Assembly: GCA_009838735.1 (NCBI GenBank)
Contig: VXQZ01000011.1
Location: 17,601 to 81,600 of the forward strand
Direction: 5' to 3'
From: Chloroflexota bacterium
GTDB lineage: Bacteria > Chloroflexota > Dehalococcoidia > Bin125
Length of the DNA stretch: 64,000 nucleotides
Positions 3,761 to 18,469 of the stretch are shown here, piece after piece. The position numbers were made by a program, and so were the translations under genes. Numbering within the stretch: the stretch's first letter is position 1; every line of letters begins with the position of its first letter. Below the pieces are notes generated by a model, which worked only from the letters and a program-made list of their open reading frames with translations, did not search any database and was not told where the DNA came from.

Positions 3761-5091
3761 CCGCGGACCCCGAGCCCGAGGCGACGACGTCAACGGATCC
3801 TCCCGTTGGCGCGCTGTTTCGCAATCGTCCGTTCCTGGCGCTCTGGTCGGCGACCGGGATCCAGCTGACGATCAACTCCGCCATCCAGTTTGTGCTGCTG
3901 ATCTGGGTGCTGGAGCAGACCGGGTCGCCGTTTGCCTCGACGCTGTTGGTGATCTGCCTGGCCGCTCCACCGGTGGTTACCGGCGCGGTCGCCGGGGTGT
4001 TGCTGGACCGGCTCGACAAGCGGCGGGTGCTGATCGTCGCGGTCATCATTCGTGCCGGACTGACTGCGTTGTTACTCATCGCCGACAACGTGTCCGTCGG
4101 GACGGTCTACGCGGTGGCCTTCGGAACCGCGCTGGCCGGCCAGTTCGCCGTCCCGGCGGGAGCGGCCGCGCTACCCCGCTTTGTTTCTCGGCAGCAGCTG
4201 TTGTCGGCCAACTCGGCGTTTCAGTTCACGACCATGTCGACGCAGTTGATCGGGTTGGTGATTATCGCGCCAATCATGTTGAAGGTGATCGGCTACGACG
4301 CGTCGTACATCGTCAGTGCGGTCGCGCTGGCGTTCTCGGCAGTGCTACTCGCCTGCTTGCCCTCGCTTCCGCCGTTCGACCGCACGCCCCACCGCGTGTC
4401 CGAAGATGTCGGTCAGGTCAGGGCGGCCTTCGCCACGACTTTGCACGACATTCGATCTGCGGGGGATCTCGTCTGGCGCGACCGGTTAACGGCGCTGGCG
4501 CTTGTCCAGCTGATTTCCGGCGTGATGATGCTGTTCATGTTCGCCGTGCTGGTCCCGCAGTTCGTCCACGATGTGCTCGGTCGGGCTGAGGAAGATGCGG
4601 TCTTCGTCTTCTGGCCGACTGGCTTTGGCGCACTGCTGGCCCTGGTTTTCGTACCGCGCATCGGCCGGCGGATCCGGATGAACACCATGGCCTCGTTCGG
4701 TCTGGCGGTGATCACCGTCATCGTGACGGTGTTTGGCGTGCTCGACTTCCTCCGGTCGACTGGTTCCACCCAGGACTGGCTGCTGGCCGCCACGCTGATC
4801 ATGGCGTTCCCGCTCGGTCTTGCCTACGCGATGGTCAATGCCCCGGCGCAAACGCTGCTCCAGGAGCGCTCGCCGCCGGAGATGCGTGGGCGCCTGTTCT
4901 CGGCGCAGATGATGCTGGCCAATGCCGTCTCGATGCTGGCGCTGCTGTTGGTCGGTGGAGTGTCGGACGCCGCCGGGGTGAGGCAAGGACTGTTCCTGCT
5001 CGGCGGGGGGTTGTTCCTGATCACGCTGGGATCGCTCTGGTTGGGACGGGGAGGTCCTACGCGACCGCCACCCGAGCTGACCGGCGATTGA
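3757..5091 (+). CDS. MFS transporter
   Basis: ~12 predicted TM helices, MFS-like LDRLDKRRVL motif after TM2; probable GTG start overlapping pyrF stop (GTGA); ORF-track start 3544 lies inside pyrF and is rejected. Confidence 0.7.
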   Translation: MTADPEPEATTSTDPPVGALFRNRPFLALWSATGIQLTINSAIQFVLLIWVLEQTGSPFASTLLVICLAAPPVVTGAVAGVLLDRLDKRRVLIVAVIIRAGLTALLLIADNVSVGTVYAVAFGTALAGQFAVPAGAAALPRFVSRQQLLSANSAFQFTTMSTQLIGLVIIAPIMLKVIGYDASYIVSAVALAFSAVLLACLPSLPPFDRTPHRVSEDVGQVRAAFATTLHDIRSAGDLVWRDRLTALALVQLISGVMMLFMFAVLVPQFVHDVLGRAEEDAVFVFWPTGFGALLALVFVPRIGRRIRMNTMASFGLAVITVIVTVFGVLDFLRSTGSTQDWLLAATLIMAFPLGLAYAMVNAPAQTLLQERSPPEMRGRLFSAQMMLANAVSMLALLLVGGVSDAAGVRQGLFLLGGGLFLITLGSLWLGRGGPTRPPPELTGD

Positions 5092-5190
5092 GCCGATACT
5101 CTCTCCTGCCGTTCCTCGAGCCGACTCCCGGCCTACGCTAATCTGACACAGCAGACGCTGCGAGATAGCGATCGGGCAGAGATAGAAGGG

Positions 5191-5721
5191 ATGCGCGACA
5201 TGAAAGAAGTCACCATCGAAGCGCTGCGCGTCTCTCTGATGAACTACAACCGCGTCGTGGTCCTCAAGGAAAAGGACGCCGACCGCTACCTGACCATCTA
5301 CATCGGCGCGGCCGAGGCCGATGCGATTGCCATCCGGCTGCAGAACGTGTCAGTCCAGCGGCCGATGACGCACGATTTGATGACCAATGTGATGCAGGAA
5401 CTGGGCGCCAGCGTGACCCGGGTTGTCGTGACCGAGGTGCGCAACGACACCTATTACGCCCGCGTCTTCCTGGACGTGAACAATGAGCAAGTGGAGATTG
5501 ACTCCCGCCCGTCCGACGCGATAGCACTGGCGGTTCGGGCCGAGGCGCCGATCTTTGTCGAGGACGAAGTGATTGATCAGGCAGGGGTGTTGCTCGACGA
5601 CGAGGGCCTGGTGGCGACCGACGAAGAGGGTCGGCCGGAGCCGGTCAAGCCGGAGGAACTGGAAAAGATGTCGGCCTTCCGCGACTTCATCGAGTCGCTC
5701 GACATGGACGACTTCGAGTAA
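5191..5721 (+). CDS. bifunctional nuclease (BFN/DUF151) family protein
   Basis: 176 aa; RVVVLKEKDADRYLTIYIGAAEADAIA and RPSDAIALAVRAEAPIFV motifs typical of PF02577; acidic C-terminus. Confidence 0.7.
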   Translation: MRDMKEVTIEALRVSLMNYNRVVVLKEKDADRYLTIYIGAAEADAIAIRLQNVSVQRPMTHDLMTNVMQELGASVTRVVVTEVRNDTYYARVFLDVNNEQVEIDSRPSDAIALAVRAEAPIFVEDEVIDQAGVLLDDEGLVATDEEGRPEPVKPEELEKMSAFRDFIESLDMDDFE

Positions 5722-5855
5722 CCCGCACTACACAAGGATTGCCGGGTTTGGAATCGCCGTGGGCCGAGGCGGCGTTGCCTTGTCGCAAGTGGGGTCTGTG
5801 ATAGCCTTCACATTGCTCCGGAAACGGGGTGTGCCTCCAGCAGGGAGGAGTCCCC

Positions 5856-6145
5856 ATGAGACAGTGGCCGCCGGCCATGCAACTCATGGGCATCGGCTGG
5901 TACGTGGCTACGTGCATCGTGCTGGGCGTTGTCGGTGGAGTCCTGCTGGACGACGAGTTGGGCACGGGATTCGCGCTCACGCTCGTCGGACTCGCTCTCG
6001 GTTTGGCTACGGCCGGCTGGGGCGGGTATCGCATGTTGCAAGATCTATTCGCCGCTCAAGCGCGGCAACGACAAGACCAGGCAGAGCGGCGCCCTCCCTC
6101 CGAAGACGCGCCCGTGGACGATGAACAGGACGAGGAGGAGCGCGC

Positions 6146-6149
<4 letters not shown>
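5856..6149 (+). CDS. atpZ: AtpZ/AtpI-like small membrane protein of ATP synthase operon
   Basis: ~97 aa, two TM helices (GIGWYVATCIVLGVVGGVLL, GFALTLVGLALGLATAGWGGY), immediately upstream of atpB with overlapping stop/start; acidic tail. Confidence 0.6.
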
Positions 6150-8037
<1,888 letters not shown>

Positions 8038-8137
8038 CCTGACGCCGCCAGACCCCGCAGTGGAGCGCCGCCGGACGCTGGTCCAGCGGCGCAGCTGACG
8101 GGATTGGCAACCGGAACAGACTGATTGGCAGGATGGT

Positions 8138-8638
8138 ATGGACGCTCTCGGTCTCAACCTGGCCGGACTGATCACGCATTTCATCAGTTTCGGCATCCTG
8201 TTCGCGCTGCTGATCTTCCTGCTCTACAAGCCGCTCGGCCGGGTGCTCGATGAGCGGCGCAAGCGGATCGAAGAGGGTCTGACCGCGTCTGAACGCGCTC
8301 AGGAAGCGGCTGAGGAAGCGCGCGCCGAGGCGCGCGCCGAGATTCAGCAGGGCCGCGACGAGGCCCAGCGCCTGGTCGCACAGGCTCAGGAACTGGCGCA
8401 GCGGATCGAAGCCGAAGCGCGTGAAAACGCCGCGGGCCAGGCCGAACAGCTGATCGAACGCGCCCGCTCGGAAATCGAGCAGGAACGTGATCAGGCCGTG
8501 CAACAGCTGCGCAATGAGTTTGCCGGCATGGCGATCGCGGCCGCCGAACGGGTGATTGAACAGTCACTGGATGCGGACGACCACCAGCGGTTGATTAGCG
8601 ACGTGCTGGCCGAATCGTCCAGTGGACAGCAGAACTAG
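8138..8638 (+). CDS. atpF: F0F1 ATP synthase subunit b
   Basis: 166 aa, single N-terminal TM then long charged coiled-coil (EEARAEARAEIQQGRDEAQRL...), operon position. Confidence 0.85.
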   Translation: MDALGLNLAGLITHFISFGILFALLIFLLYKPLGRVLDERRKRIEEGLTASERAQEAAEEARAEARAEIQQGRDEAQRLVAQAQELAQRIEAEARENAAGQAEQLIERARSEIEQERDQAVQQLRNEFAGMAIAAAERVIEQSLDADDHQRLISDVLAESSSGQQN

Positions 8639-8647
8639 GAGCGACCT

Positions 8648-9187
8648 GTGGCGCTGAGTGATCCCGCTGCACGACGCTACGCCGACGCGGTGTTCGGCAT
8701 CGCGCACGACACCGCATCTCACGATCGCTGGTTATCCGATCTTGAGGACATCGCGGCCTTGTTCAGCGAGCCGACGGTCAACGGGTTCCTCGTCTCGACC
8801 CGCGTTGCGCAGGCTGAGAAGGAGCAAGTGCTCGACAACGCGCTGCCCGATGTTCAGCGCGCTGCCGCGAACTTCGCGAAACTGCTCGTCCGCAAGCGGA
8901 GGGCCAACCTGGCTCCGCAGATCATTGAAGCGTTCCGCGAGCGCCTGAACAGTGTGCGCGGCATCGCCGAAGCGACCGTGACGACCGCCGTCCCACTCTC
9001 TGACGACGCGCGTTCCGCCGTCGAAGAGGCGGTGCGGCGTTTCACCAACGCCGAGACCGTTTCGTTGAGCGAGACGGTTGATGGCCAGATCATCGGCGGC
9101 GCCGTGGTCAAAATCGGCGACCGGATCATTGACGGATCCGTCCGCACGCGCCTGTCCACCATGCGCCGCTCGTTGGCGCAGGGTTAA
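8648..9187 (+). CDS. atpH: F0F1 ATP synthase subunit delta
   Basis: 179 aa OSCP/delta-like, operon position between b and alpha. Confidence 0.8.
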
Positions 9188-9209
9188 TCACACCGAAGGA
9201 GTCAGCATT

Positions 9210-10736
9210 ATGGCTGTCCGACCAGAAGAAGTCGCCGCCCTGATTCGACAACAGATCGAAGGCTTCGAAAGCCAGGTCGTCTCTGCTGAGGTCGGGACCG
9301 TCGTCGAGGCGGGCGACGGTATCGCCCGGGTCTACGGCCTCGCTGGCGCGCTCTCGGGCGAACTGCTCGAGTTCCGCCCCAAGGACGGCTCCGACCCGGT
9401 GATGGGTATGGCGCTCAACCTGGAAGAGGAAATCGTCGGCTCCGTGATCATGGGCGACTACCGCGTGATCGAAGAGGGCGATGAAGTCCGCTCCACCGGC
9501 ACCGTGGCCGAGGTCCCGGTCGGCGAAGCGCTGATCGGCCGGGTTGTCAACGCGCTGGGCGAGCCAATCGACGGCAAGGGCCCAATCGCGGCCGCAGAAT
9601 CGCGCCCGGTCGAGCGGATCGCTCCCAACGTGGTGACCCGCGCATCGGTTGATACGCCGGTCCAGACGGGCATCCTGGCGATCGACTCGCAGATCCCGAT
9701 TGGCCGGGGCCAGCGCGAACTAATCATCGGCGACCGGCAGACCGGCAAGTCCTCGATCGCGATCGACACGATCATCAACCAGCAGGGGCAGGATCTGATC
9801 TGCATCTACGTCGCCATTGGCCAGAAGCAGGCCAAGGTGACCAACGTCGTGGCCACGCTCGAGGAGCACGGCGCGATGGGCCACACCATCGTGGTCAACG
9901 CCGCGTCGGCAGAGTCGGCGGCGCAGCAGTACCTCGCGCCATACTCCGGCGTCGCGATGGCCGAGTACTTCATGGAGCGCGGCCAGGACGCGCTGATCAT
10001 CTACGACGACCTCTCCAAGCACGCCTGGGCGTACCGCCAGATCTCTCTCCTCCTGCGCCGTCCTCCGGGTCGCGAAGCGTACCCTGGCGACGTCTTCTAC
10101 CTCCACTCTCGACTGCTCGAGCGGGCCGCCAAGCTCTCTGATGAATACGGCGGCGGCTCGATCACCGCGTTGCCGATTATCGAGACCCAGGCCGGCGACG
10201 TCTCGGCATACATCCCGACCAACGTCATCTCGATCACCGACGGACAGATTTTCCTCGAGTCCGACCTGTTCAACGCCGGGCAGCGGCCGGCCGTTAATGC
10301 CGGCATCTCGGTGTCGCGAGTGGGTGGTTCCGCTCAGCGGCGCGCGATGCGCTCGGTCGCCGGTCAGCTCCGGATCGACATGGCACAGTTCCGTGAACTC
10401 CAGGCGTTCGCACAGTTCGGTACGTCCGACCTCGACGCGGCGACACGCCGTCAGCTTGAGCGCGGTCAGCGGCTCTCGGCGCTGCTGGTTCAGCCCGAAC
10501 AGCAGCCGCTGGCGATGTCTACCCAGGTCGCGCTGCTCTATGCCGCCAACAGCGGCGTGCTCGACGACGTGCCGGTCAACAAGATCAACGATTTCGCCAT
10601 CGGGGCGAGCGATTACCTGAACACCTCACACCGCGACCTGCTTGGCGGCATCGCCGACAGCGGCCAGCTGTCTGACGACGACGAGGCGGCGCTCAGCTCC
10701 GCGCTGCAGACATTCAAGGACACGGTCCCCTTCTAG
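9210..10736 (+). CDS. atpA: F0F1 ATP synthase subunit alpha
   Basis: Walker A GDRQTGKS, typical alpha N-terminus [20 protein letters not shown]; ATG 9210 with GAAGGAG RBS; ORF-track start 9078 overlaps atpH and is rejected. Confidence 0.95.
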
Positions 10737-10780
10737 GCGGGCCGAGCATCCGAGAACGCAACTGAGAGCAGAAGGGGTCA

Positions 10781-11659
10781 ATGGCCAACACCCGCGAAAT
10801 CCGACGGCGCATCCGCTCGGTCGAGAACACGGCCAAGATCACGAACGCGATCCAGCTCGTGGCGGCGTCGAAGATGCGCCGCGCCCAGGATCGCGCGCTG
10901 CAGGCGCGGCCGTACGCCGAAAAGATGCAGGCCGTACTCGGTCACCTGTCCGGCGTCGCGGGCGATCCGGAGACCGCGCATCCCCTGCTCGAACGGCGCG
11001 ACGTCAACGAAACGACCGTCATTCTGATCACGCCCGACCGCGGGCTTTGCGGTGGTTTGATTGCCAACCTCGAACGGCACACGGGCGAGATCGTGCTCGG
11101 TCCCCAAGCCGGCGGCTCGGGTGACATCTCGATGATCCCGGTTGGCCGCAAGGGCGGCGATTACTTTCAGCGCTTCGGAATCGACTTCCGGGCCAGTTTC
11201 CAGGAGCTTGGCGACTATCCCGGACTGGCCGAGACCCAACCGATTTCACGAATCGCCATTGACGATTACACCGAAGGCAAGGTTGACCGCGTCCTGCTGG
11301 TCTACGCCTCGTTCGTCAATACCGTGAGTCAGGTTCCTGTGACCGTGCCGATCCTGCCGGTTGAACCACCCGCCAGTGATGAAGAGTCCTCGGGCGAGAC
11401 GCAGTACATCTTCGAACCCTCACCGCAGGAAGTGCTGGCAGACCTGCTCCCGCGCTATGTTGACCTGCTCGTCTACCAGGCCGTGCTCGAAGCGGCTGCC
11501 TCCGAACAGTCGGCGCGCATGGTCGCGATGCGCAACGCAACCGACGCGGCGAACGACATGATCGCCGACCTCACGCTCGTCTACAACAAGGCCCGCCAGG
11601 AGCAGATCACCTCCGAGCTGCTCGACATCACCGGCGGCGTCGAGGCGCTCAAGGGCTAA
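10781..11659 (+). CDS. atpG: F0F1 ATP synthase subunit gamma
   Basis: 292 aa, N-terminus MANTREIRRRIRSVENTAKITNAIQLVAASKMRRAQ and C-terminus ITSELLDITGGVEALKG are gamma signatures. Confidence 0.95.
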   Translation: MANTREIRRRIRSVENTAKITNAIQLVAASKMRRAQDRALQARPYAEKMQAVLGHLSGVAGDPETAHPLLERRDVNETTVILITPDRGLCGGLIANLERHTGEIVLGPQAGGSGDISMIPVGRKGGDYFQRFGIDFRASFQELGDYPGLAETQPISRIAIDDYTEGKVDRVLLVYASFVNTVSQVPVTVPILPVEPPASDEESSGETQYIFEPSPQEVLADLLPRYVDLLVYQAVLEAAASEQSARMVAMRNATDAANDMIADLTLVYNKARQEQITSELLDITGGVEALKG

Positions 11660-11662
11660 GTC

Positions 11663-12340
11663 ATGGCGTCACAGTCATCAGCGGTGATCTTCGACATGGA
11701 CGGCGTCCTGCTTGACTCCGAGCCGCTGCACTACGAGGCCGTCCGCCAGGCTCTGGCCGAGCAAGGCGTCGACTTTCCATTCGACGACTACGCCCGCTAC
11801 CTGGGCACAACGCTGACCAGCACCTGGGACGAACTCTGCGAGCGCTACCCGATTACGATGACGCTCGAGCAGTTCGAAGCGCGCTACAACGCCGACGTGC
11901 TCAAGCAGTATCAGGCTGGCGCCCCACTGATCCGCGGAGCACGGGAGCTTGTCGAGCAGCTTCGCGAAGCCGGCGTGCCAATCGCCGTCGCCAGCTCGTC
12001 ACACCGATTGTGGGTCAACGCGGCGCTCAGAGGCGCAGGATTGAGCCGCTACTTCGACCAGACCACCGCAGGCGACGAGGTCTCGATGGGCAAGCCTTCG
12101 CCCGAGATCTACCTCAAGGCCGCCAAGAAGCTGGGCATTGACCCCGCCCGCTGCATCGCCATTGAGGACGCACCCGCCGGCGTGGAATCCGCCAACGCCG
12201 CCGGGATGAAGGTCGTCCTCGTGCGCAGCGAACTCACGCAAGACCTCAATCTGACATCTGACTGGCAGGTCAATGACCTGACCGAATTCAAACTCACGTG
12301 GTTGTCCGAGCCCTCCGCCGACCTGGTCGGCGCGGCCTAG
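11663..12340 (+). CDS. HAD-IA family hydrolase (beta-phosphoglucomutase-like phosphatase) embedded in atp operon
   Basis: DMDGVLLDSEPLH motif I, ...AVASSS motif II, GKPSPEIY and IEDAPAGVESANAAGM motifs III/IV; starts 3 nt after atpG stop and ends 24 nt before atpD. Confidence 0.85.
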   Translation: MASQSSAVIFDMDGVLLDSEPLHYEAVRQALAEQGVDFPFDDYARYLGTTLTSTWDELCERYPITMTLEQFEARYNADVLKQYQAGAPLIRGARELVEQLREAGVPIAVASSSHRLWVNAALRGAGLSRYFDQTTAGDEVSMGKPSPEIYLKAAKKLGIDPARCIAIEDAPAGVESANAAGMKVVLVRSELTQDLNLTSDWQVNDLTEFKLTWLSEPSADLVGAA

Positions 12341-13774
<1,434 letters not shown>

Positions 13775-13807
13775 GCTTGCACCGACGACGTCTGAGGGGA
13801 CGCCACC

Positions 13808-14251
13808 ATGCCGCTCACGCTCGAGATCATCACCGGCGAACGCCGCCTGTTGCGGCAGGAAGACGTCGACGAGGTCATTGCTCCCGGCTCACTCGGAGAA
13901 CTTGGGATCCTGCCCAATCACGCTCCTCTCGTGACGTCGCTGGTCGCAGGCGAGCTGCGGGTCAAGACCGGCAACGAGGTTGAAGAGTTTTTCGTCAGCG
14001 GCGGATTCCTTGAGGTCCTGTCGGACGAGGTCACTGTTCTGGCCGACGCAGCCGAACATGGCTCGGAGATCGACGCCGAACGGGCGGAGGAAGCTCGGCA
14101 ACGGGCAGTTGAGCGCCTGGAGCAGGCCAGCGACGCCGATCGCGCGCGTGCGCAGGCTGCCCTCTCGCGATCGCTCCAGCGACTCCGGGTGCTTGAACAT
14201 CGCCGTCGGCGCGGCGCCGGCGGCCGGGACATGTCGCGACCCACGGGCTAA
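13808..14251 (+). CDS. atpC: F0F1 ATP synthase subunit epsilon (with short Arg-rich C-terminal extension)
   Basis: N-terminal beta-sandwich motif LEIITGERRLLRQEDVDEVIAPGSLGELGILPNHAPLVT, helical C-domain; follows atpD. Confidence 0.85.
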   Translation: MPLTLEIITGERRLLRQEDVDEVIAPGSLGELGILPNHAPLVTSLVAGELRVKTGNEVEEFFVSGGFLEVLSDEVTVLADAAEHGSEIDAERAEEARQRAVERLEQASDADRARAQAALSRSLQRLRVLEHRRRRGAGGRDMSRPTG

Positions 14252-14289
14252 CAGGATCGGCGGGTCGACTCGGCAGGTACAGTCTCTGT

Positions 14290-15585
14290 ATGAGCGCTGC
14301 CGCTGAGCCCTGTTTCCGGATCAACGGATTGCGACGCCTCGACGGCTTGTTGCGCGTCAATGGCGCCAAGAACGCCGCGTTGCCATGCCTGGCGGCTTCG
14401 CTGCTTTCCGATCAGCCATCCCGCTTGCGCCGCGTGCCCAACATCGAAGACGTGCGCCGTTTGCTGGAGATTCTCTCGTTCCTCGGCGTCGAGTCGGATT
14501 TCCATGACAATGAGGTCGTTGTGCGCCCGTCGGGCGTCTGCGGCGGCAGTCCGCCCGACGCGCTCGCCGCGGCGCTGCGGGCATCCTTCCTGGTCATGGG
14601 GCCGTTGCTGGTTCGGACCGGTCTGGCCAGTTGCGGCACGCCGGGCGGCGACGTGATCGGTGCGCGCCCTCTGGATGTCCATCTCGCCGGCTTTCGGGCG
14701 TTGGGCGCCGAAGTTGAGTCGGTAGGCGGACGGACGATTGCGCGCGCGCCGCATGGCTTGCGTGGCGCCACCTTCGTGCTCGACTACCCGAGCGTTCTGG
14801 GCACGGAGAACCTGCTACTCGCCGCAACACTCGCGCGCGGACGGACGCGCCTGGTCAACGCGGCGATGGAGCCGGAGATCATCTGTTTGGCCGAAATGTT
14901 GAACCGGATGGGCGCGAGCATTTCGGGAGCCGGTGGCCACACCATCACGATCGACGGCGTCGAGCGGCTAACCGGGGTCGAGCACGAGCTCATTCCTGAC
15001 AGGATTGAGACCGGCAGCCTGCTGATCGCCGCTGCGGTGACGCGCGGACAGGTCTGCCTGCAAGGCGTCAGGCCCGATCATCTTGAGTCGCTCCTGGGAA
15101 AGCTCAGCGAAATCGGGGTGGACGTCAGCCAAAAGCCAGGGCAACTGGATATCGCGGTCGAGGCCGACGCTCGTCTCACGGCTACCAACCTGCAGTCGCT
15201 GCCGTTTCCGGGGTTCGCCACCGATTTGCAGGCGCCGATGACGGCGCTACTCACTCAGGTCGAGGGCACGTCCGTCGTTCATGAGCGAGTCTTCGAAAAC
15301 CGGATGCAGCATCTCGATGAGCTTCGCAAGTTCGGCGCCAATATCATCGCCGGCGGCGCAGCGCCGGTTGTGATCGGGCCGACGCCGTTGACCGGCGCTG
15401 TGGTGCGCGGAACCGACATTCGTGCAACGGCGGCGTTGATTGTCGCGGCGCTCGCGGCCGACGGCGAAAGCCGCATCTACGGTGTTGATCATCTGTCTCG
15501 CGGTTACGCGGATCTGGCCGGACAACTGCAACATCTTGGCGCCGACATTGAGCTCGCCCGAAGCGCCGATACACTGACGAACTGA
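14290..15585 (+). CDS. murA: UDP-N-acetylglucosamine 1-carboxyvinyltransferase, Asp at the catalytic Cys115-equivalent position
   Basis: 431 aa EPSP-synthase fold; RINGLRRLDGLLRVNGAKNAALP N-terminus; active-site loop PGGDVIGARPLDVH (E. coli PGGCAIGARPVDLH). Confidence 0.9.
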   Translation: MSAAAEPCFRINGLRRLDGLLRVNGAKNAALPCLAASLLSDQPSRLRRVPNIEDVRRLLEILSFLGVESDFHDNEVVVRPSGVCGGSPPDALAAALRASFLVMGPLLVRTGLASCGTPGGDVIGARPLDVHLAGFRALGAEVESVGGRTIARAPHGLRGATFVLDYPSVLGTENLLLAATLARGRTRLVNAAMEPEIICLAEMLNRMGASISGAGGHTITIDGVERLTGVEHELIPDRIETGSLLIAAAVTRGQVCLQGVRPDHLESLLGKLSEIGVDVSQKPGQLDIAVEADARLTATNLQSLPFPGFATDLQAPMTALLTQVEGTSVVHERVFENRMQHLDELRKFGANIIAGGAAPVVIGPTPLTGAVVRGTDIRATAALIVAALAADGESRIYGVDHLSRGYADLAGQLQHLGADIELARSADTLTN

Positions 15586-15621
15586 CTACGCTGAATGCAC
15601 TGATCGGCCGAAGCGGAGATC

Positions 15622-16668
15622 ATGTTTCTCACCAAACGACTTGGTATCGATCTCGGTACCTCCCGACTCAGAATTGCCGTGCCTGGCCGCGGCGGACAGA
15701 TAGTGATCGACCAGCCGACGGTCGTCACGCTGTCGACCCAGGAAAACGCGGTCCTCGCCGCCGGTAATGACGCCGCCAACATGGTTGGTCGTGCACCCGA
15801 GTCGGTCAGTGTGATCAATCCCATGCGCGAAGGCGTCATCGACGACTACCGGATCGTCGAAGCACTGCTTCGCTACTACATGGGACTGGTCGTCGGGCGC
15901 TTCAACCTGGTACGTCCGGAAGTGATGATTGCGACCCCGGCCGGAGTGACCAACGTTGAGCAACGAGCTGTCCGAGACGCCGCCGAACAGGCCGGCGCGC
16001 GGCGGCCGGCTCACCTGATCGCCAACCCACTCGCCGCTGCGATCGGCGCCGGCGTGCCCATGGGAGACGCGCGCGGCGCGCTGATCGGCAATCTCGGCGC
16101 CGGCCGCTCGGAGGCGGCGGTGCTGTCGATGTACGGAGTCGTGGTCTGGGAGTCGGCGCGAGTCGGCGGAGAAGTCGTCACTGAAACCATCGCCGACCAC
16201 GTCAAACGACGACACAGCCTGTTGATCGGCGAACCGACGGCGGAGGAGCTCAAGTTCGCAGCCGGCTCGGCGATCCCGGTCGAGGATCCGGTACGGGCCG
16301 AAGTGCGAGGCCGTGATCAGTCGAGCGGCATGCCCCGTAGCGTGACGATTACGGCAAATGAACTCGTGCCCTCTGTGCAGCAGGTGTTGCAGACGTTCGT
16401 CGAGGTGACTCGCAGCACGCTCGAGCGCACGCCGCCCGAGTTGACCGCTGACATCATCGACCGCGGCATGCTGTTGACCGGCGCCGCGGCGCGCCTCCAG
16501 GGGATTGACGCCTATCTCGCCGAACAGGTCGGGATCCCGGTCACCATCGCCGACAACGCGGAGGACGCGGTGGCGCTGGGCGCGGCGGAAGCGCTTGACA
16601 ACCTCGACATCGTCGGGCCGAATCTGCTCGCCCAGGAAAGTGTGCTGGGAGCGGCCGAATCGCGCTGA
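15622..16668 (+). CDS. mreB: rod shape-determining protein MreB/Mbl
   Basis: Actin-fold phosphate-1 motif GIDLGTSRLRIAV, NPMREGVIDDY, 348 aa. Confidence 0.9.
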   Translation: MFLTKRLGIDLGTSRLRIAVPGRGGQIVIDQPTVVTLSTQENAVLAAGNDAANMVGRAPESVSVINPMREGVIDDYRIVEALLRYYMGLVVGRFNLVRPEVMIATPAGVTNVEQRAVRDAAEQAGARRPAHLIANPLAAAIGAGVPMGDARGALIGNLGAGRSEAAVLSMYGVVVWESARVGGEVVTETIADHVKRRHSLLIGEPTAEELKFAAGSAIPVEDPVRAEVRGRDQSSGMPRSVTITANELVPSVQQVLQTFVEVTRSTLERTPPELTADIIDRGMLLTGAAARLQGIDAYLAEQVGIPVTIADNAEDAVALGAAEALDNLDIVGPNLLAQESVLGAAESR

Positions 16669-16689
16669 CCGACGAACCGACGAGACCGA

Positions 16690-17364
16690 CTAGTTGGCCG
16701 TCACGTCAGCCTGGTGATCCTCGACATAACCGTCGAACGGCTCTTCGAGGTAGTAAGCCATGCTTTCGAGTTCCATGACGGGATCGATCTGGCGCAGACG
16801 CACGCCCTGGGGCACGCTCATCGTCACGGGAGCGTAGCTGAGAATCGCCCTGACGCCGCCGTCGACCAGGATGTCGATCACGGACGGGGCCGCTTCGGCC
16901 GGGACCGCCACGATGCCCATCGCGACGCGCGTTTTCTGCAGGTACTCGGACAACCTGGCGACATCGTCAACGCGATAGTTGTCGATCTTCCGGCCGATCT
17001 GACTCGGATCGGAGTCGAAGACGCGCACAACCTCGAAGCCGCCCAGCTGGAACCCGCGATAGCCCAGTACCGCGCGCCCCAGCTGCCCCACTCCGACGAG
17101 GACCATCTCTTTGACCCGCCCGTTCAGACCGAGGATGCTGCGCAGCCGATCCCTCAGGCTGAGGACCTCGTAGCCGCGCCCGCGTTTGCCGAAGCGGCCA
17201 AAGTACGACAGATCCTTGCGAATCTGGGCCGGCGTCACGCCAAGCCGACGGCCCAACTCCTGGGAGGAGATGAAGTCGCGGCCTTCGCTCGCGAGCAGCC
17301 CGAGCTCGCGCGCATAGAGCGGCAGGCGGCGAATGACGATATCCGGGATCTCGACCTCGCTCAC
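16690..17364 (-). CDS. rex: redox-sensing transcriptional repressor Rex
   Basis: N-terminal winged helix (RLPLYARELGLL...ISSQELGRRLGVTPAQIRKDLSYFG) plus Rossmann GVGQLGRAVL NADH-binding motif. Confidence 0.9.
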   Translation of the reverse strand: MSEVEIPDIVIRRLPLYARELGLLASEGRDFISSQELGRRLGVTPAQIRKDLSYFGRFGKRGRGYEVLSLRDRLRSILGLNGRVKEMVLVGVGQLGRAVLGYRGFQLGGFEVVRVFDSDPSQIGRKIDNYRVDDVARLSEYLQKTRVAMGIVAVPAEAAPSVIDILVDGGVRAILSYAPVTMSVPQGVRLRQIDPVMELESMAYYLEEPFDGYVEDHQADVTAN

Positions 17365-17464
17365 TCGAACACTCTCGTTGATGATTGCTTGCGGCTCAGA
17401 CTACAACCGACCGCCCAATTGTCGGCCCGGTATTGATTGCGAGGATGTTGCGGCTGTTTGATAT

Positions 17465-18469
17465 CTATAACACACGATCATCCGGCTGGCGCTCTCCGAA
17501 ATCGTCGGCTCTCAGTGCCTCCAGCTTGGCCAGGTCGGCGTGCGAGATGTCGTCCAGATCGACCGCGGCGATCTGATCCTCGAGTTCCGCTCGATTCTTG
17601 ACTCCCGGGACGACAGTTGAGACGGCAGCCTGCTGCAGCGCGTACCGTGCCGACCAGCGGGATAGCGGAACTCCGTCTCGCTCCAGGAATCGCAGAGTCC
17701 GCGCTCTCCTGTGATCAATGGCTACGAGCGAGTCGGGCGGCACGGCGCGATCGATGGAGTTGGACAGAGCTCCGGCCGCGAGGTTGCGAATGCCGATTAC
17801 GCCGATGCCCAGCTCCTCGGCCAGCGGCAGCAGCTGGCCATGGTTGTGCAGCGACGATCCTTCCGGCAAGGGTCTGGCGTTCGAGTCGTTGAGCAGGTTG
17901 TAGTAGCACTGCACGGTGTCCAGCGAGCCGTCGCGCAACACGGTTCGGACGGAGCCGGCGTCGCCCATTCCGGTGACGCCCACGTAACGAGTCAGGCCGT
18001 CCTGCTTGAGTCGATGCAGCGTGTCAACGGCGAGCATTGCGTCGGCCACCGAAACCGAGCGTCGATAGTGGCCCCGCGTCGGCGTGATCGTGTTGTGCAG
18101 CTGGAAAAGGTCGACTCGCTCACGCCGAAGGCGTTCCAGCGACTCGTGGATGCCGCGCTCCACTGCTGCCGGAATGTCCGCCAGATCGTCTTCGCTCAGT
18201 GAGACCTTCGTCGCCACCAGCATGTCGTGTCCGCGGCCTTGCGGAGCCTCGAGCAACGCGCGGCCCAGATTGCGCTCGGCCGCCCCGTCTCCATAGCTCG
18301 GAGCGACGTCGTAGAAGTTGATCCCTTCCGCCATCGCGAAGGTGATCGTCTCTGCGATCTCCTCGTCCGTGGTTTCGCCCCAGACGTGCCCGATCCCGCC
18401 GCCGCCCAGACCGATCTCGGAAACGACCAGCCCCGTACGTCCCAGCTTGCGGTATCGCATCATCGCCAA
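17465..18469 (-). CDS. aldo/keto reductase family oxidoreductase
   Basis: 334 aa; MRYRKLGRTGLVVSEIGLG N-terminus and IDTAPSYGDG-like motif (FYDVAPSYGDGAAE) typical of AKR. Confidence 0.85.
   Translation of the reverse strand: MAMMRYRKLGRTGLVVSEIGLGGGGIGHVWGETTDEEIAETITFAMAEGINFYDVAPSYGDGAAERNLGRALLEAPQGRGHDMLVATKVSLSEDDLADIPAAVERGIHESLERLRRERVDLFQLHNTITPTRGHYRRSVSVADAMLAVDTLHRLKQDGLTRYVGVTGMGDAGSVRTVLRDGSLDTVQCYYNLLNDSNARPLPEGSSLHNHGQLLPLAEELGIGVIGIRNLAAGALSNSIDRAVPPDSLVAIDHRRARTLRFLERDGVPLSRWSARYALQQAAVSTVVPGVKNRAELEDQIAAVDLDDISHADLAKLEALRADDFGERQPDDRVL

Follow-up and report, generated by a model that had tools for sequence, protein, structure and literature searches.

Why does a gene for a hydrolase of the HAD superfamily lie in the middle of an ATP synthase operon, and does its product take part in the work of that enzyme? 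The question is raised by a DNA stretch of 64,000 nucleotides (nt), hereafter the window, from a Chloroflexota bacterium of the Dehalococcoidia (contig VXQZ01000011.1 of assembly GCA_009838735.1, positions 17,601 to 81,600). It contains a complete F-type atp operon at 5829-14251 on the forward strand, all genes of which are co-directional and contiguous, and between atpG and atpD lies the open reading frame (ORF) 11663..12340 (+), which encodes a protein of 225 amino acids (aa). A first-pass annotation had drawn attention to this gene and had proposed that the enzyme either couples energy status to a metabolite pool or serves F1 as an accessory or assembly factor. Our analysis favours a plainer answer: the product is probably a housekeeping phosphatase of the sugar- or polyol-phosphate type which was trapped in the atp operon and is not part of the ATP synthase.

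The inserted gene and its product

Both neighbours of the HAD gene were identified. Upstream, atpG (10781..11659, +) encodes a gamma subunit of 292 aa, which matched PF00231 over residues 3-290 (318.7 bits) and TIGR01146 with 309.5 bits (cut-off 194.45); it is of standard length and has no extra domain. Downstream, atpD (12365..13774, +; ATG at 12365) encodes a beta subunit of 469 aa (TIGR01039, 776.9 bits, cut-off 462.85). The gaps previously given for the gene proved exact: its ATG is separated by 3 nt (GTC) from the TAA of atpG (11657-11659), and its TAG stop is followed by a 24-nt spacer (12341..12364, +) holding atpD's own Shine-Dalgarno sequence GGGAG at 12354-12358. The region 11663-12340 is genuinely coding, and its composition is native: GC3 (0.82) and GC2 (0.44) resemble those of the neighbouring genes, and the regional GC of 0.64-0.65 is similar to that of the flanks. 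An identical protein is present at NCBI (P0001, 'HAD family phosphatase [Chloroflexi bacterium]').

The protein exceeded the cut-offs of the Pfam families HAD_2 (126.3 bits, cut-off 23.8) and Hydrolase (128.7 bits, cut-off 26.4) and of the NCBIfam model TIGR01509 HAD-SF-IA-v3 (94 bits, cut-off 29.4). The sequence motifs quoted in the first-pass annotation (D11-M-D13-G, S111-113, G-K144-P and E168-D169-A-P-A-G) were all found. Motif I, which reads F10-D11-M12-D13-G14-V15 and provides the nucleophile D11 and the acid/base D13, was invariant in 11 and in 31 orthologs. Motif II (A110-S111-S112-S113), motif III (G143-K144-P145) and motif IV (E168-D169-A-P-A-G) were invariant as well, and all four were kept across orthologs down to 44-47% identity. 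Since the catalytic motifs do not vary, the protein is in all likelihood an enzyme. Its AF2 model (pLDDT 90.6) showed a Rossmannoid core and a four-helix C1 cap (H20-32, H40-46, H51-61, H68-85) between strand 1 and the core. Foldseek aligned about 220 columns with C1-cap enzymes at TM-scores of 0.77-0.84 (best match 4g9b, 0.84). The sole part unmatched in the superposition comprised the disordered ends, residues 1-3 and 218-225, and the disordered C-terminal tail was not conserved. Neither the AF2 model nor Foldseek revealed an additional module; the fold is a plain HAD-IA fold.

None of the models for specific activities reached its curated cut-off. The best NCBIfam subfamily match, PGMB-YQAB (TIGR02009), gave 133.7 bits where 153.35 are needed, and the beta-phosphoglucomutase model TIGR01990 gave 113.8 (cut-off 189.4). 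The corresponding values were 124.1 for the hexitol phosphatase HxpB (NF008087, cut-off 191), 92.9 and 60 for the pyrophosphatase models NF053653 (BT2127-type, cut-off 245) and NF009804 (PpaX, cut-off 218), and 77.1 for phosphoglycolate phosphatase (TIGR01449, cut-off 180). Judged by its model matches, the protein is a member of the HAD superfamily, subfamily IA, variant 3, and of no named equivalog. The closest solved relatives by sequence were TM_1254 (3kbb), the phosphatase domain of MtlD, YniC (1te2) and human HDHD1A/PUDP. They are annotated as phosphatases of phosphorylated carbohydrates, mannitol-1-phosphate, 2-deoxyglucose-6-P and pseudouridine-5'-phosphate, respectively, and thus act on sugar, polyol or nucleotide (pseudouridine) phosphates. 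By family resemblance only, a sugar- or polyol-phosphate phosphatase is our best guess for the substrate class.

Conservation of the position and origin of the gene

A genome scan with the HAD protein recovered the order atpG-HAD-atpD in the loci L001, L002, L003 and L004. L001 and L002 are chromosomes of metagenome-assembled genomes (MAGs) labelled 'Dehalococcoidia', whose HAD proteins are 75-80% identical to that of the window; L004 is Candidatus Amarobacillus elongatus (46-47% identity). The latter belongs to the Tepidiformaceae; its atpG product shares about 80% identity with proteins bearing the labels Tepidiforma, Tepidiformaceae or Dehalococcoidia. Two homologs with 53-56% identity, P0113 and P0119, are encoded at the same operon position. 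The loci of these two share a conserved block consisting of BFN, atpZ, atpB (510-515 aa), E, F, H, A, G, HAD, D, C, murA and mreB. By a metagenome scan the further atp-linked loci L084 and L085 were obtained. Six genomes were chosen by means of atpG alone, blind to HAD, and in each of them (6/6) the HAD gene directly followed atpG.

The synteny comparison suggested by the first-pass annotation was carried out in this way. The order atpG-HAD-(ECH)-atpD, in which ECH is an additional gene of some relatives (see below), was present in 15/15 independent genomes or populations inspected (the window, L001, L002, L003, L004, L081/82, L083, L084, L085, L164/165, L166, L167/168, L169, L170 and L171). 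They represent two deep lineages, the 'Dehalococcoidia' MAG clade and the Tepidiformaceae, and among the 15 of both lineages no loss of the gene from the operon was found. It had been stated beforehand that a widespread arrangement would speak against its special significance; within this lineage it is indeed widespread, and it is annotated only generically ('HAD family phosphatase'). The conserved position shows that the gene matters, though not why. Of the other 153 HAD loci retrieved, none was flanked by atpG and atpD, and only L041 was near an atp gene at all (atpD, ~5 kb away). A literature search for a HAD gene in atp operons or between atpG and atpD, and for the ATP synthase of Tepidiforma, yielded nothing relevant. 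The arrangement is thus not described in the searchable literature; the surrounding operon is otherwise canonical.

When 168 HAD sequences were arranged in a neighbour-joining tree, the atp-linked proteins (15 sequences from 12 of the 15 genomes or populations) formed an exclusive clade, which suggests one ancient insertion. The nearest HAD genes outside the clade, L086, L010 and L087, gave no functional hint, as their contexts are mutually unrelated: one includes genes for an AFG1 ATPase and a pentapeptide-repeat protein, another the gene of an M1 peptidase, and the third genes for an aminotransferase and a glycosyltransferase. Between the two lineages, the identity amounts to 75% for atpD, 65% for atpA, 55-59% for atpG and about 46% for HAD. 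A single ancient insertion in the common ancestor of both lineages would be the simplest history suggested by these comparisons. Recent horizontal acquisition was ruled out, as GC and GC3 match those of the neighbours and the gene is common to two deep lineages. In Chloroflexus aurantiacus, the eight subunits of the ATP synthase are encoded by eight consecutive genes, Caur_3040-3047, and the purified enzyme consists of eight subunits (PMC12002316). As the HAD gene is absent from this cluster, the insertion is not phylum-wide.

Some database labels at first gave the impression that the arrangement also spans the Anaerolineae. L003 (CAYYYI010000056.1, 'uncultured Anaerolineaceae bacterium') and L166 (GCA_013822275.1, 'Anaerolinea sp.') bear such labels, which conflict with their Tepidiformaceae-like atpG and HAD genes. 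This view was corrected, since L004 is a member of the Tepidiformaceae and atpG and HAD of the other two are closest to that family. By these affinities, L003 and L166 are probably mislabelled MAGs. An atpG relative, P0189, carries the label 'Hyphomicrobiales bacterium'.

Junctions and start codons

In the window, the atpG-HAD junction (11651..11665, +) comprises AAGGG within the last atpG codons, TAA, the 3-nt spacer and the ATG of HAD; we propose it as a site of termination-reinitiation. In all loci examined, the distance from the atpG stop to the HAD start was +1 to +5 nt. A stop-to-start distance of about -8 to +10 nt has been used as a criterion for translational coupling (PMC10666635), and by distance, which is all that this comparison covers, the pair qualifies as coupled in every locus. 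Termination-reinitiation in Escherichia coli and Haloferax requires very short distances; its efficiency falls steeply and is nearly gone at ~20-40 nt (PMC10666635). The HAD-atpD gap varied elsewhere from 10 to 134 nt or contained an extra gene. Within this spacer the motif CAGATGGGAG was conserved in L001 and L002. The conserved spacing of 1-5 nt, the variable gap behind HAD and atpD's own Shine-Dalgarno sequence argue for translation of HAD by ribosomes that have just completed gamma and for an independent start of beta.

A scan of positions 5000-17500 disclosed neither a sigma-70-like promoter nor an intrinsic-terminator-like site flanking the HAD gene, with the restriction that Chloroflexota promoters may not fit the sigma-70 consensus. 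A GC-rich hairpin in the last HAD codons (~12316-12332) was rejected as a terminator, since it lacks a T-run. With gaps of 3 and 24 nt and an arrangement conserved in all 15 genomes or populations, co-transcription with the atp genes, as assumed in the first-pass annotation, is the natural reading, and HAD is presumably made from the atp mRNA.

Start codons differed between the lineages. In 10/10 loci of the Tepidiformaceae type, the sole conserved in-frame start before the catalytic Asp was CTG (nine loci) or TTG (L166). It is positioned 1-2 nt past the atpG stop and is preceded in most loci by GGAGG in the last atpG codons. The CTG codons are located at L003:1517, L004:5989, L084:204, L085:3807, L164:4882 and L167:4884, and the TTG codon at L166:4881; in L169-L171, CTG begins with the first nt after the atpG stop. 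The codons from CTG/TTG to DMDG are conserved with synonymous changes and are therefore translated. CTG is reportedly, after Hecht et al. 2017, a very weak start codon in bacteria. Such a start speaks for a lower output of HAD than of gamma and against F1 stoichiometry; furthermore, coupling to the single-copy gamma gene would cap its output at the gamma level or below. Thus, the earlier suggestion that HAD is present at a stoichiometry similar to that of the F1 subunits is doubtful.

The unusual start also affects annotation. Because HAD starts at CTG or TTG in Tepidiformaceae-type genomes, automatic gene calls often give a protein of 207 aa, which begins at the Met within DMDG and lacks the nucleophile Asp, while other calls choose an upstream TTG or GTG present only in some loci. 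HAD gene calls of this type may therefore miss the catalytic aspartate. A gamma-HAD fusion by stop-codon readthrough or frameshift was ruled out, as the frame offset between atpG and HAD varies by locus (0, +1, +2).

Evolutionary rates and the insertion site

Substitution rates were compared over seven genome pairs. The dN/dS ratio was 0.14-0.31 for HAD and 0.15-0.43 for murA; for atpA, atpG and atpD it was 0.02-0.25, with values of at most 0.16 in 6/7 pairs (atpD reached 0.25 in one). In 6/7 pairs, the dN of HAD was 2-9x that of the alpha, beta and gamma genes, a rate resembling that of murA. The HAD gene is under purifying selection and evolves like an ordinary enzyme. No unmatched extra domain able to dock HAD was detected by Pfam in gamma, beta or epsilon, all of which are of standard length.

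The same junction harbours a second gene in many genomes of the Tepidiformaceae type. Between HAD and atpD, an enoyl-CoA hydratase (ECH; crotonase) gene was found (Pfam ECH_1, 3.5e-43), which overlaps the HAD stop by 4 nt. It is located at L003:2167-2913, L166:5531-6280, L167/L168:5534-6277, L169:5034-5777 and L171:5031-5771; in L084 and L085 its presence is suggested only by a gap of ~780 nt. The window's clade, L004, L164 and L170 have no ECH gene at the junction. As ECH is unrelated to HAD, the site evidently accepts unrelated housekeeping genes. In about 88-90% of Bacteroidetes and Cyanobacteria, the atp genes are divided into two transcription units at the gamma|beta boundary (PMC5709465), and this boundary is the commonest natural split point of atp operons. 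Moreover, two genes without any known connection to energy conversion, murA and mreB, have likewise kept their place directly behind the atp operon, indicating that gene order is generally frozen here.

The rest of the operon and its surroundings

The operon begins with a gene for an atpZ/atpI-like small membrane protein (5829..6149, +; Pfam ATPase_gene1, 38.9 bits), which also precedes atpB in L081-L083. It is followed by atpB for the F0 subunit a (6146..7699, +; 517 aa), by atpE for the c subunit (7789..8037, +; 82 aa), by atpF for the b subunit (8138..8638, +; 166 aa) and by atpH for the delta subunit (8648..9187, +; 179 aa). The last three were assigned as ORFs whose equivalent positions hold ATP-synt_C in L081-L083, ATP-synt_B in L081 and OSCP in L081 and L083, respectively. 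The alpha subunit gene atpA (9210..10736, +; 508 aa) starts with ATG at 9210 behind GAAGGAG and matched Pfam ATP-synt_ab_N, ATP-synt_ab and ATP-synt_ab_C, and atpC for epsilon (13808..14251, +; 147 aa) matched ATP-synt_DE_N and ATP-synt_DE. Several public assemblies of these organisms contain frameshift-split gene calls of atpB, atpA or atpD (P0241-P0248; L167:2420-3923 and 6558-7718). Since the genes are intact on sibling contigs, for instance on L168, the split calls look like assembly errors and not like pseudogenes.

The genes adjoining the operon do not belong to the ATP synthase. murA (14290-15585, +) and an mreB-like gene (15622-16668, +) lie downstream; by tblastn and Pfam, their counterparts in related loci are labelled EPSP_synthase and MreB_Mbl, respectively. 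Upstream, the gene of a bifunctional-nuclease-domain protein (BFN, 5191-5721) is part of the conserved block. This block of BFN gene, atp operon, murA and mreB-like gene has been kept in the window's clade as well as in the Tepidiformaceae; atp, murA and mbl are also close to each other in Bacillus subtilis. Beyond the mreB-like gene, an ORF on the opposite strand (16690-17364) appeared Rex-like by eye only. Another small-molecule phosphatase, a 2-phosphosulfolactate phosphatase of the ComB family (2121-2894, -; Pfam 2-ph_phosp, 2e-48), is encoded ~9 kb upstream of HAD and has no evident link to the atp region.

The a subunit of the window is about twice the normal length. Pfam ATP-synt_A matched it in two stretches, separated by a lineage-specific insertion of ~240 aa at roughly residues 135-372 (about 6548-7261), which is rich in His, Asp and Glu and contains a conserved CLIEC motif. 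No fold was assignable to the insert (single-sequence AF2, pLDDT 40.5). The best PDB match of the subunit was 9itj_T of C. aurantiacus, to which residues 3-137 and 372-511 aligned; the a subunit of that species carries an insertion of 31 aa in the aH3-aH4 linker and occurs in two copies per enzyme (PMC12002316). In an exhaustive search among 1.84 billion representative proteins, the insert turned up in just 13 clusters. The full-length matches were of a-subunit size (520-547 aa) and aligned at the same position, and a separate homolog search gave only frameshifted fragments. Tepidiformaceae-type a subunits (434-440 aa) have a different, shorter insert. Thus, the a subunit is enlarged, to 434-522 aa, in the same lineages that carry the atp-linked HAD.

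Passenger or partner of the ATP synthase

How the gene came to its place, and what keeps it there, would probably be explained by a long-lasting capture. The enzyme is predicted to be a phosphohydrolase of the HAD-IA variant 3 (beta-phosphoglucomutase-like) type that is catalytically competent and depends on Mg2+; its likely substrates would be small phosphorylated metabolites, for example phosphates of sugars or polyols. Its gene would go back to a single ancient insertion at the gamma|beta boundary, which took place in the common ancestor that the window's Dehalococcoidia-type lineage shares with the Tepidiformaceae, and would have stayed trapped at this boundary ever since. It would be transcribed on the atp mRNA and, to judge from the 1-5 nt spacing, translated by termination-reinitiation from ribosomes ending atpG, while atpD would be restarted from its own ribosome-binding site. 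In this manner the operon would supply steady housekeeping expression to an enzyme that is presumably retained for its own metabolic function and not for working with the ATP synthase. If this is true, the locus is a natural example of an essential, tight operon capturing an unrelated gene and freezing it over very long times, and the capture took place at the very boundary between modules that divides the atp operons in other phyla.

Several points weigh against this explanation. The position was kept without one loss in 15 diverged genomes, which is stronger than a neutral passenger predicts, and the atp operons inspected are those of the window's clade and the Tepidiformaceae, not of other Dehalococcoidia such as Dehalococcoidales or SAR202. 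Monophyly of the atp-linked HADs obtained a bootstrap value of only 55/100 in a simple neighbour-joining tree. The substrate class was derived by family resemblance alone, all specific NCBIfam equivalogs lying below their cut-offs. Finally, very short intergenic distances are ~4.5-fold enriched for subunits of heteromeric complexes, and 30% of the E. coli gene pairs at very short gaps encode complex subunits versus 7% at longer gaps (PMC10666635).

Other explanations were weighed. Among them, deliberate co-expression fared best, but we still regard it as unlikely: the phosphatase would track oxidative-phosphorylation capacity without physical association with F1, and it might serve to free Pi from a pool of phosphometabolites or to clear away a phosphorylated metabolite that is inhibitory. 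Such a role would fit the strict position and tight coupling to atpG in all 15 genomes of two deep lineages, the purifying selection on HAD and its intact catalytic residues. However, the sequence gives no pointer to a substrate related to Pi, nucleotides or the ATP synthase, and the nearest characterised relatives use sugar, polyol or pseudouridine phosphates. The ECH gene at the same site in many relatives indicates that this site takes unrelated housekeeping genes, and murA and mreB, for which no energetic link is known, have been conserved as neighbours to the same degree.

Slightly less probable than regulatory coupling is a different chemistry of the enzyme, namely that of a beta-phosphoglucomutase, a HAD-type inorganic pyrophosphatase or a phosphoglycolate phosphatase. 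This possibility is a variant of the capture and not a separate, exclusive case. The best NCBIfam match is the beta-PGM/YqaB subfamily, the top Foldseek match 4g9b is a beta-PGM homolog, and the models for beta-PGM, the BT2127-type pyrophosphatase, PpaX and Gph all gave significant E-values. Each of them remained under its curated cut-off, though, and the closest solved relatives by sequence are phosphatases, not mutases.

It appears very improbable that HAD is a functional partner of the atypical Chloroflexota F-ATP synthase, one that would be made by gamma's ribosomes, bind F1 or control a phosphorylated effector, and would have co-evolved with the enlarged a subunit. Should this minority reading nevertheless be true, a rotary ATP synthase would have acquired an enzymatic accessory, and this in a phylum in which the architecture of the enzyme is already known to be unusual. 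Since Tepidiforma species are cultured, the question of passenger or partner is directly testable.

The poorest prospects of all has a purely structural role, in which HAD would attach itself to gamma or F1, perhaps already during translation, and act as a subunit or chaperone peculiar to the lineage: closely spaced gene pairs are enriched for complex subunits (PMC10666635), the same lineages carry the aberrant, much enlarged a subunit and the Chloroflexus ATP synthase is already of unprecedented architecture (PMC12002316), but a scaffold has no need of invariant catalytic motifs, HAD has a plain fold with no extra domain or conserved surface extension and a disordered, unconserved tail, gamma, beta and epsilon are of standard length with no docking domain, HAD evolves several-fold faster than the subunits, the unrelated ECH occupies the same junction, the weak CTG/TTG start in Tepidiformaceae-type loci argues for sub-stoichiometric amounts and the purified C. 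aurantiacus enzyme contains the eight canonical subunits only (PMC12002316), so that on these comparisons the accessory or assembly factor envisaged in the first-pass annotation appears unsupported.

Relation to known enzymes and operons

Among solved structures, TM_1254 (3kbb) and E. coli YniC/HxpB (1te2) were the best sequence matches of HAD, with E-values of 3.9e-28 and 1.5e-23. Both have the HAD-IA C1-cap fold and the motif I FDMDGVLxDSEPL in common with it; the identity is only ~30-33% over the Foldseek alignments, and the HxpB model remained under its cut-off. To our knowledge, neither of their genes lies in an atp operon. The beta-phosphoglucomutase family (Lactococcus lactis PgmB, 1lvh; E. 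coli 4g9b) gave the best superposition and, with TIGR02009, the best subfamily. With 24-27% identity and scores below the subfamily and equivalog cut-offs, mutase activity is not indicated.

The C. aurantiacus F1Fo (9itj; PMC12002316) stems from the same phylum and has the closest solved a subunit, with an insertion at the same aH3-aH4 linker. In contrast to the window, its gene cluster lacks HAD, and the insertion measures 31 aa instead of ~240 aa. The canonical order atpIBEFHAGDC of E. coli and B. subtilis, a gene order common in bacteria (PMC5709465), agrees with that of the window in its eight subunit genes, their succession and the atpI/Z-like leader. The differences are the a subunit of about double length and the gene interposed between atpG and atpD, which is HAD alone in the window and HAD together with ECH in some relatives. 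In the split atp operons of Cyanobacteria and Bacteroidetes, where AG lies apart from atpDC, the break occurs at exactly the gamma|beta boundary (PMC5709465). Here, by contrast, both modules are adjacent and probably co-transcribed, and the boundary has been filled by what appear to be passenger genes while the modules have not been dispersed.

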